A DNA stretch of 64,000 nt from Escherichia coli (GTDB lineage: Bacteria > Pseudomonadota > Gammaproteobacteria > Enterobacterales > Enterobacteriaceae). The stretch lies in assembly GCF_017348835.2 (NCBI RefSeq), contig NZ_CP071375.1; one strand, given 5' to 3'. Shown here in pieces: positions 461 to 59,227 of this stretch. The notes below the pieces were generated by a model. The model saw only the letters and a list, made by a program, of their open reading frames with translations, made no database searches and had not been told where the DNA came from. Within the stretch, counting starts at the first letter, position 1; each line of letters opens with the position of its first letter. A program made the translations under genes and the position numbers.

Positions 461-1879
461 CTATGCGTTTTTCAACATCCACTCAATTTCTGTTTCTGTG
501 ATGAGGCGCTCAAACTGCAACAGCTCATCATTTTTACAGGCGTGATAGACATGGCAAAACCGTTCGCCTAAATAGCGGCGCAGGTGATCATTCTCGATAA
601 ACTCACCCAGGGCATCGCTCTGGCGAATCGGGAAGGGTAAGCCATCCTGTTCCAGCCCGTTGCCTTCGACTTCTTCCTGCAACGGCAGCTCGTTATCAAG
701 ACCGTGCAAAATACCGGCAAAAATCGCTGCCATCACCAGATATGGGTTGGCATCGGCACCCGCCACGCGATATTCCACGCGGTGATTATGGCGATCGCCG
801 CATGGAATACGCAGGGCGACGGTGCGGTTGTTATGGCCCCACGACGCCTGCGTCGGTACATACATCCCCGGCTGGAAGCGGCGATACGAGTTCACGTTTG
901 GTGCCAGCAACGCCATTGATGACGGCATCAGATCGATCATTCCGGCGAGCATTTTTTTCAGCAGCGGCGAATCTTCGCCTTCCGCGTCAGAAAGCACGTT
1001 CTCGCCACGATTATTTTGCATACTGATATGGATATGCATCCCGCTGCCCGCGTGCTCTTCATACGGCTTCGCCATAAAAGTGGCGTGCATCTTATGCTTT
1101 TCTGCCATCAGACGCACCAGGCGTTTTAGTGCCAGCGCATCATCGCAGGCTTCCAGCACGTTATCGGTATGGTAAAGATTGATTTCAAACTGACCCGGCG
1201 AGGCCTCAGCGACCGCGCCATCTGCCGGAATCAGCTGTAACTGCGCCAGTTCATCAATATCATTGAGCACGTCGGCGAAGTGATTGAGGTTATCAACGGA
1301 GTAAACCTGGCTTTGTGTATTGCGGTCATCGGTGCCGGGCGCGCAGGGCGGTTGCAGATACCCTTCAGCGTCACGCTGGCGATCCAGTAAATAGAACTCC
1401 AGCTCTACCGCTACGACCGGAAACAATCCGCGCTGGCGCAGCTGCTGCCACAGGCGGTTAAGAACGTTCCGCGGCTCAACGTCAAAGGGAGCGCCATCTT
1501 CATCGACCATGGTCAGGAGCATCTGACCGATAAACTCTGGATCGGCGGCAGAAGGGGTTAAGGAACCGAGAACAGGAACACAGGTACGATCCGGCTCGCC
1601 CATTTCCTGACCCAGACCTGCTTCTTCTACTACGTTGCCCAGAATATCCATTGCAAACACCGAGGCCGGGAAATAACATCCTTTCTCGAGCTTCTTCAGG
1701 CTTGAAACAGGAATACGTTTTCCACGGAAGCAACCATTCAAATCGGTAAGTAAAACATCAACATATTGCGTATTCGGGTAGCGCTCCAGGTAGCGTTTCA
1801 CTTCCTGCGTAAAGGCGCTACCCCGCCTCTCTTCTGACTGCTGAACAAAGTTCTCTACTTCAACGATATTGGTTTCCAT
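461..1879 (-). CDS. puuA: gamma-glutamylputrescine synthetase (glutamine synthetase family)
   Basis: 472-aa product from METNIVEVENF inside the 498-aa ORF-track frame; ATG at 1879. Confidence 0.95.
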   Translation of the reverse strand: METNIVEVENFVQQSEERRGSAFTQEVKRYLERYPNTQYVDVLLTDLNGCFRGKRIPVSSLKKLEKGCYFPASVFAMDILGNVVEEAGLGQEMGEPDRTCVPVLGSLTPSAADPEFIGQMLLTMVDEDGAPFDVEPRNVLNRLWQQLRQRGLFPVVAVELEFYLLDRQRDAEGYLQPPCAPGTDDRNTQSQVYSVDNLNHFADVLNDIDELAQLQLIPADGAVAEASPGQFEINLYHTDNVLEACDDALALKRLVRLMAEKHKMHATFMAKPYEEHAGSGMHIHISMQNNRGENVLSDAEGEDSPLLKKMLAGMIDLMPSSMALLAPNVNSYRRFQPGMYVPTQASWGHNNRTVALRIPCGDRHNHRVEYRVAGADANPYLVMAAIFAGILHGLDNELPLQEEVEGNGLEQDGLPFPIRQSDALGEFIENDHLRRYLGERFCHVYHACKNDELLQFERLITETEIEWMLKNA

Positions 1880-2090
1880 GATTCTTCGCCTTTGGTTTGT
1901 TTTCCGCTCGTTATCAAAGCGTAAAATATAATGACCACCATTCGAATCTGTATGCAAACTAAATGTTTGTCAAATGTTAAATTGAGTTTGCAAAAATGAA
2001 AATCCACTGCTAGATTGAAAAAATATTGAACATAAAGGTCATTTAAACCGCAGTAATGGCGATAATTTAGTCCACTTAGTGAGATTGAGC
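1880..2090. promoter_or_regulatory. divergent puuA / puuD promoter-operator region with repeated AAAATAT-ATGA-CA-like motifs (putative PuuR sites)
   Basis: AT-rich divergent intergenic region; motif copies near 1921-1935 and 2020-2032. Confidence 0.45.
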
Positions 2091-2855
2091 ATGGAAAATA
2101 TAATGAACAATCCGGTTATCGGTGTCGTAATGTGCAGGAACAGGCTTAAGGGGCATGCGACCCAGACTCTGCAAGAAAAGTACCTGAATGCCATCATCCA
2201 TGCAGGCGGCTTGCCAATTGCGTTACCACATGCGCTGGCGGAACCGTCCTTACTTGAACAACTTTTGCCGAAACTCGATGGCATTTATCTTCCTGGTAGT
2301 CCCAGCAATGTGCAGCCGCACCTATATGGTGAAAACGGCGATGAGCCTGACGCCGATCCCGGGCGTGATCTTCTGAGCATGGCGTTAATTAATGCCGCAC
2401 TCGAAAGGCGCATCCCCATTTTCGCCATCTGCCGGGGGTTACAGGAACTGGTGGTGGCAACCGGTGGTTCGTTGCATCGCAAGCTGTGCGAACAGCCTGA
2501 ATTGCTGGAACATCGGGAAGATCCCGAACTGCCGGTGGAACAGCAATATGCGCCGTCGCACGAAGTTCAGGTTGAAGAGGGGGGATTACTGTCTGCATTG
2601 TTACCTGAATGTAGCAACTTTTGGGTAAACTCTCTGCATGGACAAGGGGCGAAGGTCGTTAGCCCGCAGTTGCGTGTTGAAGCTCGCTCGCCGGATGGCC
2701 TGGTTGAGGCGGTGAGCGTCATCAATCATCCTTTCGCGCTGGGCGTACAGTGGCACCCGGAATGGAACAGTAGCGAGTACGCGCTTTCGCGTATATTGTT
2801 CGAGGGCTTTATCACCGCTTGTCAGCACCATATCGCTGAAAAACAGCGACTCTGA
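2091..2855 (+). CDS. puuD: gamma-glutamyl-gamma-aminobutyrate hydrolase
   Basis: 254-aa product starting MENIMNNPVIGVVM; class-I glutamine amidotransferase-like. Confidence 0.95.
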   Translation: MENIMNNPVIGVVMCRNRLKGHATQTLQEKYLNAIIHAGGLPIALPHALAEPSLLEQLLPKLDGIYLPGSPSNVQPHLYGENGDEPDADPGRDLLSMALINAALERRIPIFAICRGLQELVVATGGSLHRKLCEQPELLEHREDPELPVEQQYAPSHEVQVEEGGLLSALLPECSNFWVNSLHGQGAKVVSPQLRVEARSPDGLVEAVSVINHPFALGVQWHPEWNSSEYALSRILFEGFITACQHHIAEKQRL

Positions 2856-2881
2856 CCACTACAGTTTAAGGAAATGCAAAT

Positions 2882-3439
2882 ATGAGTGATGAGGGACTGG
2901 CGCCAGGAAAACGCTTGTCGGAAATCCGCCAGCAGCAGGGGCTTTCACAACGTCGTGCCGCCGAACTCTCCGGGCTGACTCACAGTGCTATCAGTACGAT
3001 AGAACAGGATAAAGTCAGCCCTGCCATCAGTACGCTGCAAAAGCTGCTGAAGGTGTATGGTCTGTCACTCTCGGAATTCTTTTCCGAGCCGGAAAAACCT
3101 GATGAGCCGCAGGTCGTCATTAATCAGGACGATTTAATTGAGATGGGCAGTCAGGGTGTGTCAATGAAGCTGGTTCATAACGGTAACCCGAATCGCACGC
3201 TGGCGATGATCTTTGAAACGTACCAGCCTGGCACAACCACTGGGGAAAGAATTAAGCATCAGGGTGAGGAAATAGGCACTGTACTGGAAGGTGAAATTGT
3301 TCTGACGATTAATGGTCAGGATTACCACCTCGTCGCGGGGCAAAGTTATGCCATTAATACCGGCATCCCGCACAGTTTCAGTAATACGTCGGCAGGTATT
3401 TGCCGAATTATCAGCGCCCATACGCCCACCACGTTTTAA
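2882..3439 (+). CDS. puuR: HTH-type repressor of the puu operon
   Basis: 185 aa, N-terminal HTH plus C-terminal cupin, sequence recognised. Confidence 0.95.
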   Translation: MSDEGLAPGKRLSEIRQQQGLSQRRAAELSGLTHSAISTIEQDKVSPAISTLQKLLKVYGLSLSEFFSEPEKPDEPQVVINQDDLIEMGSQGVSMKLVHNGNPNRTLAMIFETYQPGTTTGERIKHQGEEIGTVLEGEIVLTINGQDYHLVAGQSYAINTGIPHSFSNTSAGICRIISAHTPTTF

Positions 3440-5077: not shown

Positions 5078-6358
5078 ATGACCGAACATACCAGCAGTTA
5101 CTACGCCGCCAGTGCGAATAAATACGCGCCATTCGACACGCTGAATGAGTCAATTTCCTGCGACGTTTGCGTGGTTGGCGGCGGCTATACCGGGCTGTCT
5201 TCCGCGCTACATCTGGCGGAAGCGGGCTTTGACGTAGTGGTTCTCGAAGCCTCACGCATCGGCTTTGGCGCCAGCGGACGCAACGGCGGGCAGCTTGTAA
5301 ACTCCTACAGCCGCGACATCGACGTGATCGAAAAAAGCTACGGCATGGACACCGCCCGTATGCTCGGCAGCATGATGTTCGAGGGTGGCGAGATCATCCG
5401 CGAACGTATCAAACGCTATCAGATTGACTGCGACTACCGCCCCGGCGGCCTGTTTGTGGCGATGAATGATAAACAGCTCGCCACACTCGAAGAGCAGAAA
5501 GAGAACTGGGAACGCTACGGCAATAAACAGCTGGAGCTGCTGGACGCCAACGCCATTCGCCGCGAGGTCGCCAGCGATCGCTACACTGGTGCGCTGCTGG
5601 ATCACAGCGGCGGGCATATTCACCCGCTGAACCTCGCCATTGGTGAAGCCGATGCCATTCGTCTCAACGGCGGACGTGTGTATGAGCTTTCTGAGGTGAC
5701 GCAGATCCAGCACACCACGCCCGCCGTGGTGCGTACTACCAAAGGCCAGGTGACGGCGAAGTATGTGATTGTCGCCGGGAATGCGTACCTGGGCGATAAA
5801 GTGGAGCCGGAACTGGCGAAGCGTAGTATGCCGTGCGGCACGCAGGTGATCACCACTGAGCGGCTGTCAGAAGATTTAGCCCGTTCGCTGATCCCGAAAA
5901 ACTACTGTGTGGAAGACTGTAACTATCTGCTTGATTACTACCGTCTTACCGCCGACAACCGTTTGCTGTACGGCGGCGGCGTGGTGTACGGCGCCCGCGA
6001 CCCGGATGACGTTGAGCGTCTTGTGGTGCCGAAACTGCTGAAAACCTTCCCGCAGCTGAAGGGCGTGAAAATTGATTACCGCTGGACGGGCAACTTCCTG
6101 CTGACCCTGTCACGGATGCCGCAGTTCGGTCGCCTCGATACCAACATCTATTACATGCAGGGTTACAGCGGCCACGGCGTCACCTGTACCCACCTCGCCG
6201 GGCGTCTGATTGCCGAACTGCTGCGCGGCGACGCCGAACGTTTCGATGCCTTCGCCAATCTGCCGCATTACCCGTTCCCCGGCGGGCGCACGCTGCGCGT
6301 ACCGTTTACCGCGATGGGCGCGGCTTATTACAGCCTGCGCGATCGTCTGGGCGTTTAA
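5078..6358 (+). CDS. puuB: gamma-glutamylputrescine oxidase (FAD-dependent)
   Basis: 426 aa, N-terminal GGGYTG dinucleotide-binding motif. Confidence 0.95.
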   Translation: MTEHTSSYYAASANKYAPFDTLNESISCDVCVVGGGYTGLSSALHLAEAGFDVVVLEASRIGFGASGRNGGQLVNSYSRDIDVIEKSYGMDTARMLGSMMFEGGEIIRERIKRYQIDCDYRPGGLFVAMNDKQLATLEEQKENWERYGNKQLELLDANAIRREVASDRYTGALLDHSGGHIHPLNLAIGEADAIRLNGGRVYELSEVTQIQHTTPAVVRTTKGQVTAKYVIVAGNAYLGDKVEPELAKRSMPCGTQVITTERLSEDLARSLIPKNYCVEDCNYLLDYYRLTADNRLLYGGGVVYGARDPDDVERLVVPKLLKTFPQLKGVKIDYRWTGNFLLTLSRMPQFGRLDTNIYYMQGYSGHGVTCTHLAGRLIAELLRGDAERFDAFANLPHYPFPGGRTLRVPFTAMGAAYYSLRDRLGV

Positions 6359-31453: not shown

Positions 31454-31743
31454 GATCGTCTCTGGTTCAGGAAGTATTACAGGCAGTGTTGTGCAAATTT
31501 TGCGGATTATCAAATCCTTTTCTTCAACGCTATGTCATCGATCTTGTATCACCTTTTTGCCGGAAGTTGTTTGTATTTTCATTGATGTGCAGATATTAGA
31601 ATTGTCGTAATGTTATATACATGGCGTATTTTATTCTTATTGGTTCTACACATGTTAATCGCATCTGATTGATCAGTTCACCTTAATAAGTTTAATAAAT
31701 CGTACTGCACATAGTACAGTACGATGGTAGCTATATAATTGAT

Positions 31744-32382
31744 TTACATGAAGAATGGCTTATCGCCATCAGTCCCGGGTTGATTGATGCCTATATTCTC
31801 ACCAATGTGTTTCTCAGGTTTATCGATGATATCTGTAATTAATGCTGCGACACTCTTACGTGATACGATCGTACCTTTGAATGGTTCATTGCGTGAGGTA
31901 AGCTCATAATCAATAATATCTTCATCCGTCAGCCAGGCAGGGCGAAGAATTGTATATTCCAGTCCAGAAGCCTCAATTGCATCCGCAGCCCTGCGGAATG
32001 GTTTTAGGGGTTCACCAATAACTGCATTATTCCATTCGCCAAATTTTCCTGGAACTTCATCATAAATGCCGAGGGAAAGAACAAAGATCAGACGTTTAAC
32101 ATCACAGGCTTTCATCGCAGCGATCACTGAATTTGCCTGAATATCTAAATCTTCCCCCGTAAGGTTGGCATACACAATATCCTGTCCCTGCATGGCCTGC
32201 TTCAGTGCTGCATGATTCAGTACATCCCCCATAATAATCTGGCTATTAGTTGGATAGGGTTTGTGTATTTTTGCTGGCTGACGAGCAAATAAAGTTTGTT
32301 TAATGGTTTGTTTATCTGCCAGTTGATTAATCACATGGCGGGCTATCTGACCGCCAGCACCAAGAATGAGTACTTTTTTCAT
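31744..32382 (-). CDS. NAD(P)H-binding protein (NmrA/atypical SDR-like), apparently intact
   Basis: 212 aa from MKKVLILGAGGQIARHV (Rossmann motif); possibly the intact counterpart of the K-12 ymjC remnant. Confidence 0.7.
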   Translation of the reverse strand: MKKVLILGAGGQIARHVINQLADKQTIKQTLFARQPAKIHKPYPTNSQIIMGDVLNHAALKQAMQGQDIVYANLTGEDLDIQANSVIAAMKACDVKRLIFVLSLGIYDEVPGKFGEWNNAVIGEPLKPFRRAADAIEASGLEYTILRPAWLTDEDIIDYELTSRNEPFKGTIVSRKSVAALITDIIDKPEKHIGENIGINQPGTDGDKPFFM

Positions 32383-32399
32383 AATATTTCTCATGAAAC

Positions 32400-33330
32400 T
32401 TATCCCAGATGGGTGTTGAAAAAAGGAATAACTTTTTCCAGCGCCTCCTGAACTGCTTCCGGTTTGTCATACAGTTCATAATGTGAGAAATCGGGTAACG
32501 AAACTAACTGACGATCCTGCGAAACCATCGCCCGGCCATAGACTTCCAGTCCATCACGATAAGCACCGAAGGCACCGACTTTTTCACCAACTACTACCAT
32601 CACCGGCTGAGTCAGTAACACTTCAGTAAATGCGAAGGCATCCCAGGCCAGCGTTTTCTGTGCATGTGAGAACAACATTTTTGTCGCACCTCCCGGTTGT
32701 TGCCCGCGTGGTGTTTTATAGTAGTCAGTTGCTTCATAAACATCGCGTTCGGTCAGTCCATGGGCTTTTGCTGCATCCAGGCTGGCGGGAAGTAATTCGT
32801 TGATCTGTAATTCTCCACCACGAGCCTCTTTGGTTCGTTGCGACGCCATTGCATTCAATGCGCCAATCGGATCGTAATTGCTGAAACCTTCCCGAAAAAG
32901 ACGCCCGATATTAACACCCGTAATACTCACTACAGCTTTAATTCGTTTTTCTGTCAGCGCGGCATTAATGGCATAGCCCCCCCCCACACACACCCAGCAC
33001 GCCAATGCGTTCAGCATCAACATATGGCAGAGTTACTGCATAATCGATAACACGGCTAATATCCTCTACGCGCTGTGTCGGATCTTCTATCCAACGAGGC
33101 TCCCCACCAGATTCTCCCTGGAAACTGGCGTCATAAGCGAGAACGACATAGCCTTTTTCAGCCAATGCCTTGCCATAGATATTGCCAGACGTCTGCTCCT
33201 TACAACTGCCAAAAGGATGGACGCTGATAATCGCCGGATACTGTTTTGACTCATCAAAATTTGGTGGAAACTGAATATTGGCAGCAATATGCCAGGCCAT
33301 ATCACTATTGCGGATTTGAATATGTTTCAT
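32400..33330 (-). pseudogene. dienelactone-hydrolase-like alpha/beta hydrolase, paralog of ycjY, disrupted by a frameshift in a C9 homopolymer
   Basis: Two overlapping ORFs (32965-33330 and 32400-33023) each cover half of the fold; frames switch in the C9 run at 32977-32985 (G9 on the coding strand) at the GVCGGGG-Y nucleophile motif; paralog ycjY reads GICAGAGY there. Confidence 0.75.
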
Positions 33331-34250
33331 TACAGAGTTTCCTCAAAGAACGGAGCTAATACTGAAATTGCTTCAGCCACATAGGCTTTGCCGTCATAAA
33401 GATCCATATGGTTTGCGCCTTCAACAATGTGATAGCGTTTATCCTGGCTTGATGCCCGATCGTACAGATCGTCACTCATCCATTTGCTCCCTGCCTGGCT
33501 GCCCGCCACAATCTGCATCGGCTGAGTCAGGTACACTTCCGCCATATGGTAAGCATCATAGGTAATAATCTGGTTAAGGCTGCGCAAAGTAGCGTAACCC
33601 GGTGCTGTTGGATACTGCGCGCGAGGGGTGTGGTAATACTCCCAGGCCTGACGCAGTTCTTCGTTCGGCGCATCGGACTCCTTCATTGGTGCCAGTGGCA
33701 TAATGGCGTATTCTCCGCTGCTAATATCGCTGGTTCTGGCGTTTGAACCCGCTTCAACGTATGGCAGGGCATCAATAGATTTCACATTGTTTTCCCAACC
33801 ATTACGGAACATCGAACCAATATTGACCGCACTAACGGTACCGATGGCCTTGATGCGGCGATCCTGAATTGCAGCATTGGCTGTATATCCTGCACCGGCA
33901 CAAATTCCCATCGCACCAATTCGGGTATTGTCGACATAAGAAAGCGTTGTCAGGTAATCAATCACGGCACTGACGTCTTCAGTACGAATGTATGGGTTTT
34001 CTAACTGACGCGGCTCGCCGCCGCTTTCACCTTGATAAGATGCGTCATAAGCAATAGTGACAAATCCCTTTTCCGCCAGTTTTTCGGCATAGGTTCCGGC
34101 CGTTTGCTCTTTAACGCCCCCACCAGGGTGAGATACCACAATTGCCGGATACTGACGGGTTTCATCAAATTTTGGAGGGAAATAGATCACTGCAGACAAA
34201 GAGATGGTTGGATTATTGCTGTTAGTGAAGCTGACTTTATTATTCATCAT
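33330..34250 (-). CDS. ycjY: alpha/beta hydrolase (dienelactone hydrolase / S9-like non-peptidase homolog)
   Basis: 306 aa from MMNNKVSFTNSNN; stop overlaps the start of the downstream paralog (TAATG). Confidence 0.8.
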   Translation of the reverse strand: MMNNKVSFTNSNNPTISLSAVIYFPPKFDETRQYPAIVVSHPGGGVKEQTAGTYAEKLAEKGFVTIAYDASYQGESGGEPRQLENPYIRTEDVSAVIDYLTTLSYVDNTRIGAMGICAGAGYTANAAIQDRRIKAIGTVSAVNIGSMFRNGWENNVKSIDALPYVEAGSNARTSDISSGEYAIMPLAPMKESDAPNEELRQAWEYYHTPRAQYPTAPGYATLRSLNQIITYDAYHMAEVYLTQPMQIVAGSQAGSKWMSDDLYDRASSQDKRYHIVEGANHMDLYDGKAYVAEAISVLAPFFEETL

Positions 34251-34387: not shown

Positions 34388-35287
34388 ATGAAGCGTGAAG
34401 AAATCGCTGATCTGATGGCGTTTGTCGTCGTTGCAGAGGAGCGTAGCTTCACTCGCGCTGCAGCCCGCCTGAGCATGGCGCAGTCAGCTTTAAGCCAGAT
34501 AGTGCGCCGTATAGAAGAACGATTGGGATTGCGGCTTCTGACGCGAACTACGCGCAGCGTTGTACCAACTGAAGCGGGCGAGCATCTTTTGTCTGTTCTT
34601 GGCCCTATGTTGCATGACATAGATTCTGCCCTGACATCCCTGAGCGATCTGCAGAACCGCCCATCCGGGACAATACGTATTACTACTGTAGAACATGCAG
34701 CAAAAACGATATTGTTACCAGCAATGCGCACATTCCTGAAATCGCATCCTGAAATTGATATCCAGCTTACCATTGATTATGGTTTGACCGATGTCGTTTC
34801 TGAACGTTTTGATGCAGGCGTCCGTCTGGGTGGGGAGATGGATAAAGATATGATCGCCATTCGAATCGGGCCAGATATACCAATGGCTATTGTTGGCTCA
34901 CCGGATTATTTTTCTCGCCGAAGTGTTCCAACGTCAGTGTCACAATTAATAGATCATCAGGCAATTAATTTGTACCTTCCCACATCGGGTACAGCAAATC
35001 GCTGGAGATTAATACGCGGTGGACGTGAAGTTCGTGTTCGCATGGAAGGTCAGCTTTTACTGAATACGATAGACCTGATCATTGATGCTGCAATTGATGG
35101 GCATGGATTGGCGTATCTACCTTATGATCAGGTTGAGCGGGCTATTAAAGAAAAAAAACTGATACGTGTTCTGGATAAATTCACACCAGATTTACCCGGT
35201 TATCACCTGTACTATCCACACCGTCGACATGCTGGCTCGGCATTCTCATTATTTATAGATAGGCTGAAGTATAAAGGTGCTGTTTAG
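34388..35287 (+). CDS. pgrR: LysR-family regulator of peptidoglycan degradation
   Basis: 299 aa with LysR HTH. Confidence 0.9.
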   Translation: MKREEIADLMAFVVVAEERSFTRAAARLSMAQSALSQIVRRIEERLGLRLLTRTTRSVVPTEAGEHLLSVLGPMLHDIDSALTSLSDLQNRPSGTIRITTVEHAAKTILLPAMRTFLKSHPEIDIQLTIDYGLTDVVSERFDAGVRLGGEMDKDMIAIRIGPDIPMAIVGSPDYFSRRSVPTSVSQLIDHQAINLYLPTSGTANRWRLIRGGREVRVRMEGQLLLNTIDLIIDAAIDGHGLAYLPYDQVERAIKEKKLIRVLDKFTPDLPGYHLYYPHRRHAGSAFSLFIDRLKYKGAV

Positions 35288-35623
35288 CACTACTTGCTGA
35301 TACATTAATTTAATTCTTCTCTTAACGTATTCTCAGTTCCTTTCAACGTTTTGGTTATTTTTTATTCTTCGTACAATGGCGACAGATGCTGATTATGATA
35401 CCGAAAACTGGTTTGAACGTGCGAAGCCCGAACGTAGTGTTCGGTGTTCTATGTGCTTTGCCGCATTTTGGCGTCTATTATTTACACTAAATCTAATTTA
35501 ATATATTGATACATAAAACATTTTATGCTTCCTGTGTCACTTTTTTGATGGAAGTTGTTTGCATTTCTTTAAGGCGAAACAAATAATTACGCATCAATTT
35601 TAATGTCGGTTAGAGGGAAACTT

Positions 35624-58474: not shown

Positions 58475-59227
58475 ATGCATTTGTCAGCAGAGGAGCATGG
58501 TGCGTATTTGTTGCTGATGTTCAATTACTGGCAAACAGGAAAGCCAATACCTAAAAACAGGCTGGCAAAAATTGCCCGTCTGACTAACGAGCGATGGGCT
58601 GATGTTGAACCATCCTTGCAGGAGTTTTTTTGCGATAACGGCGAGGAATGGGTGCATCTTCGGATTGAGGAAGATCTGGCATCAGTCAGGGAAAAATTAA
58701 CCAAAAAATCAGCCGCAGGAAAAGCATCTGTTCAGGCCAGAAGAAGCAGAAAGGAAGCAGATGTTCAAACAAAACAAGAGAGAAATTTAACAGGTGTTCA
58801 AACAGATGTTGAAGTGGTGTTTGAACATGATGTCAACACAAAGGCAACTAATAAAGATACAGATAAAGATCTAAAAACAGATCCCCCCCTAAATCCCCCC
58901 CGGGGGAATCGAGGTGTCAAAAAGTTTGACCCTCTGGATATTGCTTTGCCGAACTGGATTTCTGTCTCGCTTTGGCGTGAGTGGGTTGAATTTCGCCAGG
59001 CATTGCGAAAACCGATTCGAACGGAGCAGGGCGCTAACGGGGCGATACGGGAGCTGGAAAAATTCCGCCAGCAGGGTTTTTCACCTGAGCAGGTGATTCG
59101 ACACAGCATCGCCAATGAATACCAGGGCTTGTTCGCGCCAAAAGGTGTTCGACCTGAGACGTTACTCCGACAGGTTAACACCGTCTCGTTACCGGATAGT
59201 GCGATCCCGCCAGGCTTCAGGGGGTAA
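58475..59227 (+). CDS. ydaU: prophage replication protein, DUF1376 plus DnaT-like C-terminal domain (YdaU-like)
   Basis: 250 aa from [19 protein letters not shown]; upstream in-frame residues (SPYLADT) still look like DUF1376, suggesting the true N-terminus is missing. Confidence 0.6.

Follow-up and report, generated by a model that had tools for sequence, protein, structure and literature searches.

How an alpha/beta hydrolase gene of Escherichia coli came to be divided between two reading frames, and whether the enzyme has been lost, switched off or only misread in the assembly, are the questions raised by a run of nine C in the 64-kb stretch of DNA analyzed here, to which we refer as the window. 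The run lies at positions 32977-32985 on the plus strand and reads as G9 on the minus strand, which is the coding one. No other homopolymer in the window is as long. The runner-up G/C runs are two C7 runs located 5 nt apart (58883-58889 and 58895-58901; gatCCCCCCCtaaatCCCCCCCgggggaat) in a gene of the YdaU family, within a Rac-like prophage region. The occurrence of an 8-mer of C in 64 kb is within chance expectation, shuffling of the sequence giving a mean of 1.0 match; the significance of the run comes from its position and not from its existence.

A hydrolase gene divided at a G9 tract

Two minus-strand ORFs overlap at the G9 tract, one at 32965..33330 (121 aa) and the other at 32400..33023 (207 aa). 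The 121-aa ORF terminates in RIGVLGVCGGGLCH* and represents the N-terminal fragment of the hydrolase, which keeps Cys115 and ends with the TAA codon at 32965-32967. The 207-aa ORF includes CVGGGYAINAAL and reads, in the +1 frame, CVGGGYAINAALTEKRIKAV. The C-terminal remainder of the hydrolase proper occupies 32400..32976 on the minus strand, extends in the +1 frame from Tyr120 onwards and includes Asp260 and His284. When called mechanically, the ORF of this part begins further upstream, with an ATG at 33023. On the coding strand the sequence around the tract is TGT-GGGGGGGGGC-TAT, where the Cys codon TGT (32986-32988) stands directly 5' of the tract and the Tyr codon TAT is found at 32973-32975. 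Together with the C at 32976 the homopolymer makes up a Cys-to-Tyr gap of 10 nt (G9C), where 12 nt are needed. In the adjacent paralog ycjY the corresponding motif is C-A-G-A-G-Y, with four residues, or 12 nt, between Cys and Tyr. An in-silico swap of the 10-nt tract for a 12-nt version produces one uninterrupted 310-aa ORF with no other stop or lesion. The original prediction had described the two ORFs as one ycjY-paralog hydrolase whose frame changes in the nine-C run, had counted 10 nt where the four residues of ycjY call for 12, and had proposed the addition of 2 nt as a check; all of this is borne out.

Translation from the normal start gives Cys115-Gly-Gly-Gly, three wrong-frame codons (LCH) and TAA. 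Because the frame of the hydrolase is lost past Gly118, the complete hydrolase domain is absent and the window carries a pseudogene of the YcjY/PA2218-like family (32400..33330, minus strand). The truncated product retains Cys115 without Asp260 and His284, and we infer that it would not be an active enzyme, which amounts to loss of function. The rest of the ORF is without a second lesion, so the inactivation is likely to be recent.

Protein family and nucleophile motif

Once repaired, the protein shares 42% identity with YcjY, the product of the neighboring gene. It matches two solved structures over its full length, YcjY (5xb6, E=1.2e-68) and PA2218 (2hdw, E=4.9e-41), with the same Cys-x4-Tyr/Met spacing and with conservation of the Cys and of an Asp and a His that are candidates for the acid and the His of the triad. 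The Pfam domains Peptidase_S15, DLH, Hydrolase_4 and Abhydrolase_1 were all detected in the repaired protein over their cut-offs. YcjY is a paralog, not an ortholog, of the frameshifted hydrolase, and whereas the copy under study is broken, ycjY is intact.

In gap-free HMMER alignments with three further structures, Cys115 of G-V-C-G-G-G-G-Y falls on the Ser of the GxSxG motif. The elbow counterparts of G-V-C115-G-G in these structures are G-L-S-M-G (8b4u), G-M-S-F-G (7d78) and G-I-S-Y-G (8yzn). A comparison of 17 homologs showed no variation at residues C115, G117, G119, Y120, D260 and H284. Since Cys115 aligns to the GxSxG serine and the elbow residues are invariant, the tract can be assigned to the nucleophile elbow, in agreement with what had been read from the letters alone: it is predicted to encode positions Nu+1 to Nu+4, that is, the four Gly that follow the predicted nucleophile Cys115 in a G-x-C-x-G elbow. 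The GXCXG motif of YcjY had already drawn attention (PMC3709699).

The best NCBIfam match of the repaired protein is the UilS AHL lactonase family (NF047920). This assignment was rejected, the protein scoring 77.6 bits against an equivalog cut-off of 400 bits; ycjY scores 87.1 bits with the same model. The repaired hydrolase appears to be a distant relative of the UilS family only.

Genomic neighborhood and the K-12 remnant

The hydrolase gene is located between two minus-strand genes, the intact upstream paralog ycjY (33330..34250; ORF list and PGAP) and a full-length ymjC ortholog immediately downstream (31744..32382), which encodes an NAD(P)H-binding SDR family oxidoreductase (Pfam NAD_binding_10, E=4e-54; PGAP). 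The next gene after the oxidoreductase is mpaA. Divergently from ycjY, on the plus strand, the window encodes PgrR (YcjZ; 34388..35287, PGAP annotation), the LysR regulator of the ycjY-ymjD-ymjC-mpaA operon, whose regulon is listed as ycjY-ymjDC-mpaA (PMC5934670). The frameshifted gene is the full-length ortholog of ymjD. The stop codon of ycjY overlaps the start codon of the pseudogene by one base (TAATG), as expected for coupled operon genes, and any polarity of the frameshift on ymjC and mpaA is a predicted one.

The window differs from the genome of E. coli PE164 (NZ_CP114128.1; pig, Nanjing) by three bases in 64 kb, one in the first 50 kb and two in the last 14 kb. The difference at window position 34459 is in codon 24 of pgrR and is synonymous (GCT vs GCA). 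In view of these differences the window would represent a sibling of PE164 or another version of the assembly. PGAP labels the interval 32400..33330 in PE164 as 'alpha/beta hydrolase; frameshifted', and this is the one pseudogene in a 50-kb stretch with 50 features, from which it follows that the PE164 assembly is not riddled with indels. In several genomes, PE164 not being one of them, PGAP also annotates a 75-93-nt pseudogene fragment, 'epoxyqueuosine reductase QueH, incomplete', in the pgrR-mppA intergenic region (window positions ~35290-35620).

In K-12 MG1655 the same interval contains ymjD (b4673, 21 codons) and ymjC (b4525, 60 codons). Alignment with the window reveals two deletions in K-12, 31584-32243 and ~32411-33272 (K-12 fetched-locus positions 5681-5934). 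Because of these deletions YmjD (MKHIQIRNSDMDWHIAANNLG) consists of the first 18 and the last 2 codons of the hydrolase, and ymjC is an N-terminal stub of the SDR gene. YmjD stands for the same gene at the same locus, and both remnants are decay products of the ycjY-ymjD-ymjC-mpaA operon (PMC5934670). While K-12 lost the hydrolase by deletions, the copy in the window is full length and is broken at the tract alone.

Orthologs outside E. coli

Orthologs with 77-87% identity were found in Klebsiella variicola, Serratia, Mesorhizobium, Agrobacterium, Afipia, Brevundimonas and Sphingobium. A total of 3,482 homologs were obtained at E<=1e-40, and they are headed by single ORFs of ~310 aa. Klebsiella variicola and Serratia marcescens have the layout of the E. 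coli locus, with a divergent LysR gene followed by genes for a YcjY-like hydrolase, the hydrolase and an NAD(P)-binding protein, and in both the start of the hydrolase gene overlaps the stop of the preceding gene. In these two genera the cassette continues with a short-chain dehydrogenase, a flavodoxin-like protein and an Old-Yellow-Enzyme-type reductase. Identity of 77-87% even in alphaproteobacteria suggests that a small catabolic or detoxification module may have spread horizontally. One Logan assembly encodes a 489-aa fusion of the hydrolase with the downstream NAD(P)-binding protein, which is probably due to loss of a stop codon or to an assembly artefact.

The C-G-G-G-G-Y motif is encoded as TGC GGC GGC GGT GGT TAT in Klebsiella variicola and as TGC GGC GGC GGC GGT TAT in Serratia. 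Neither ortholog has a homopolymer at the motif, and the longest run in the gene is <=5 nt. The absence of a long run from the Klebsiella and Serratia codons implies that the homopolymer was derived within E. coli.

Alleles of the tract in complete E. coli genomes

We surveyed 5,426 complete E. coli genomes, identifying alleles from fetched loci in combination with the identity bands and lengths of the matches. Of the 5,225 matching genomes, ~3,950 retain no more of the hydrolase gene than its first 57-63 nt, corresponding to the K-type deletion, and the full gene is present in 1,272; the deletion thus affects about 75% of complete E. coli genomes. Counts of short queries at >=99% identity were corrected for ~10 partial matches, such as that to the IS-split gene of strain DEC5A, and matches split at the tract occur in ~10 of 1,282 genomes.

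The most common tract is GGGGGTGGTGGC (12 nt, in frame, gene intact), which is found in ~870 genomes and for which strains W and 602354 serve as examples. The allele G8TGGC, also 12 nt and in frame, occurs in ~70-80 genomes, in which the gene is intact unless mutated elsewhere. The indel alleles that combine G7 to G12 with TGGC belong mainly to O157:H7/O55:H7 strains. G7TGGC (11 nt, out of frame) was found in 2 genomes, TB06052 and OZ197100; G9TGGC (13 nt, out of frame) in ~230, mostly O157:H7 and including EC4115; and G10TGGC (14 nt, out of frame) in ~73, including O55:H7 DEC5D and TB182A. G11TGGC (15 nt) is in frame with one additional Gly and is present in 6 genomes, among them O55:H7 CB9615 and O157:H7 F8492, and G12TGGC (16 nt, out of frame) is present in 3. 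The tracts without the T are G10C (11 nt, out of frame), carried by the 3 genomes F2_81, ECNB21-M121 and OkiPb01695, and G9C (10 nt, out of frame), carried by PE164 and identical to that of the window. Five alleles gave a 202-nt match, and fetching of the loci assigned 3 of them to G10C and 2 to G7TGGC. An in-frame allele without the T, i.e. G11C or G8C, was found in 0 of the 5,426 genomes; in this survey G8C was detectable as a 200-nt match, and none appeared. Consequently, the lineage of the window is frameshifted whether its tract is G9 or G10. EC4115-type alleles of O157:H7/O55:H7, such as G9TGGC, affect the same gene at the same tract position and receive the same 'frameshifted' flag from PGAP. 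They retain the interrupting T (Gn-TGGC, n=9-12), whereas the G9C of the window is without it and belongs to a different small clade.

The hydrolase gene carries lesions of other kinds as well. In O55:H7 DEC5A (NZ_CP038394.1) an IS110-family element, ISEc20, is inserted within the G run, which is divided into TGTGTGTGGGGGG and GGGTGGCTAT on its two sides; the element spans fetched-locus positions 1545-3010, corresponding to window positions 32977-32985. The gene has a stop at codon 12 in strain W, for which PGAP takes a downstream start, and a stop at codon 70 in O145:H28 (RM12581), and these two nonsense lesions are independent. Judging from the losses by deletion, nonsense mutation and IS insertion, the hydrolase is dispensable in E. 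coli. O157:H7 TR01 was treated as a low-quality assembly and excluded from inference, as it has 35 substitutions in 3.2 kb relative to other O157 genomes and an 'internal stop' in ycjY.

A probable stepwise path to G9C

The clade to which the window belongs is closely knit. PE164 (G9C) and F2_81 (G10C) show no substitution between them within the gene and a single one over 3.2 kb; ECNB21-M121 and OkiPb01695 (G10C) are 1-2 substitutions in the gene away from PE164/F2_81, and the closest alleles that contain the T are 2-4 substitutions away from the clade. The clade holds OFF lengths only, G9C in one genome and G10C in three.

The four Gly of the ancestral E. coli tract would have been encoded as GGG GGT GGT GGC, a sequence in which no G run exceeds 5. 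A T>G change, synonymous because it turns GGT into GGG, may then have converted GGGGGTGGTGGC into G8TGGC, keeping the frame and creating the longest G/C homopolymer of the region. Since indel rates in E. coli are an exponential function of homopolymer length (PMC8510543), the G8TGGC tract would have turned into an indel hot spot; in Escherichia, HPT length correlates with pseudogene content, and G/C tracts are ~12-fold rarer than A/T tracts (PMC8928963). In the small clade of the window the interrupting T would have been deleted, which would give G10C (11 nt, -1 frame). The subsequent loss of one G, from G10C to G9C (10 nt), could reflect another slip during replication or a homopolymer miscalled by 1 nt, and only PE164 and the window show it. 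A path from GGGGGTGGTGGC through G8TGGC and G10C to G9C, with the order of its steps deduced from the alleles, is the most economical one. Reversion of the allele in the window would need the gain of 2 nt or the loss of 1 nt, in the latter case with a product one Gly short.

The original prediction attributed the frameshift to slipped-strand mutation. Slippage as the origin stands, but a simple slip of an in-frame homopolymer does not, given that the relatives carry G10C, that G11C and G8C were not found among the surveyed genomes and that the T has been lost. We consider it quite likely that the gene is a true, non-functional pseudogene that arose by stepwise mutation at a homopolymer of its own making.

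Alternative explanations

Long G/C homopolymers are a classic weak spot of long-read consensus, and a miscalled run, with the hydrolase intact in the living strain, would account for a tract length that occurs in a single RefSeq genome, PE164. Errors of this type do seem to affect the locus: the near-clonal O145 genomes RM9872 and RM9873-C1 differ in 20 kb at two G runs alone, namely the hydrolase tract and a G5/G4 indel at locus position ~10854 that 'frameshifts' an SDR (ymjC-like) gene in RM9873-C1. This pattern suggests homopolymer consensus errors typical of some deposited assemblies, and because the O145 pair bears such signs, part of the allele series may be artefact. However, an intact gene in the window would require G11C or G8C, that is, a 2-nt under-call or a 1-nt over-call in addition to a real loss of the T, and neither allele occurs among the surveyed genomes. 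G10C, which is likewise out of frame, is shared by three related assemblies that come from China, Australia and Japan; no other gene is frameshifted in the surrounding 50 kb of PE164, and the window, which differs from the PE164 record by 3 SNPs, carries the identical G9C. A +/-1 miscall of G9 or G10 would still leave a frameshift, and since the lineage is out of frame at either length we regard a sequencing error that hides an intact gene, as the original prediction had allowed, as very unlikely. Still more unlikely, to the point of being hardly credible, is partial synthesis of the full-length enzyme by transcriptional slippage on G9 or by a -2/+1 ribosomal frameshift. On A/T runs of E. coli, nine identical bases suffice for RNA polymerase to slip, and the remainder of the ORF is still intact. 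On the other hand, +2 nt (or a -2 ribosomal shift) would be required for an elbow of normal length, and a correction by -1 nt would yield a product one Gly short beside the nucleophile. Moreover, most E. coli and all other genera have the ortholog as one in-frame ORF that lacks the homopolymer, so that the out-of-frame layout of two ORFs is not conserved, whereas conservation would be expected of a programmed frameshift: the 3,482 homologs and the outgroup loci point to one ORF.

Reversible switching of the hydrolase ON and OFF by slippage of the poly-G, perhaps extending to ymjC-mpaA through polarity, is highly improbable. As in the contingency loci of Neisseria, Haemophilus, Campylobacter and Helicobacter, an intragenic homopolymer sets the frame and its length varies between close isolates. 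Tract length ranges from G7 to G12 among strains, and where the tract is in frame, as with G8 and G11, the annotation gives an intact protein. Over 3.2 kb, nothing but the tract distinguishes O157:H7 strains that carry G9, G10 and G11, and the near-clonal UK bovine isolates Z1766 (G9, OFF, 'frameshifted') and Z1767 (G8, ON, intact protein WP_000680617.1) have no other difference in 40.2 kb. ON and OFF lengths among close relatives are thus present in the O157:H7 clade (G8/G9), subject to assembly error. In contrast to those contingency loci, the clade of the window has no ON allele, and the tract is new, unconserved and located in a dispensable enzyme, with OFF predominant. Klebsiella, Serratia and ~870 E. 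coli carriers of the gene are without a long run, and a homopolymer that is recent, derived and absent from other lineages is not one maintained by selection. OFF lengths also dominate in O157:H7, where G9 and G10 together account for ~300 genomes against a few tens ON. The tract varies even in O145, in which the nonsense mutation at codon 70 had already killed the gene, and this fits neutral drift or miscalls; the deletion of the gene in ~75% of genomes further argues against a switch. The product is presumably a cytoplasmic-type enzyme, whereas contingency genes typically act at the cell surface or in restriction. For the lineage of the window, the suggestion of phase variability is not supported, given a clade that is OFF only, a recent homopolymer and a gene lost by many routes. 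A genuine ON/OFF switch of the PgrR-controlled operon in O55:H7/O157:H7 and a few other clades is a proposal that we likewise judge to be highly improbable. If it were true, a metabolic gene of E. coli would harbor a contingency locus of the homopolymer type, of which the G9C of the window would be a locked-OFF derivative.

Meaning of the frameshifted hydrolase

The best reading of the evidence is that the site is a hot spot of indels and of miscalls in a gene under relaxed selection, and that the pseudogene is a case of ordinary gene decay. The observation from which this analysis started is confirmed, and the interpretation attached to it is partly supported; the comparison of tract lengths across strains that it had called for returned the series from G7 to G12 followed by TGGC, as well as G10C and G9C. 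Public (RefSeq/PGAP) annotation already flags the frameshift pseudogene, and the K-12 remnant ymjD has been catalogued before. In the literature on YcjY, on ymjD/ymjC and on O157 homopolymeric tracts we found no description of the hydrolase tract.

Little hinges on the pseudogene for the strain of the window. For E. coli more widely, the orphan remnants ymjD and ymjC of K-12 gain full-length parents, which belong to a conserved LysR / hydrolase / hydrolase / SDR cassette common to Klebsiella and Serratia. The tract is also a useful sentinel of miscalled homopolymers in assemblies of E. coli, above all those of O157:H7, where caution is needed because calls of an 'intact' or a 'frameshifted' hydrolase flip between near-clonal genomes. 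Finally, the locus illustrates, in nature, that a GGT>GGG change silent at the protein level can, in the Gly-rich motif of a catalytic site, give rise to a homopolymer and, through it, to repeated destruction of the gene, by tract lengths from G7 to G12, by loss of the T and by insertion of an IS element.
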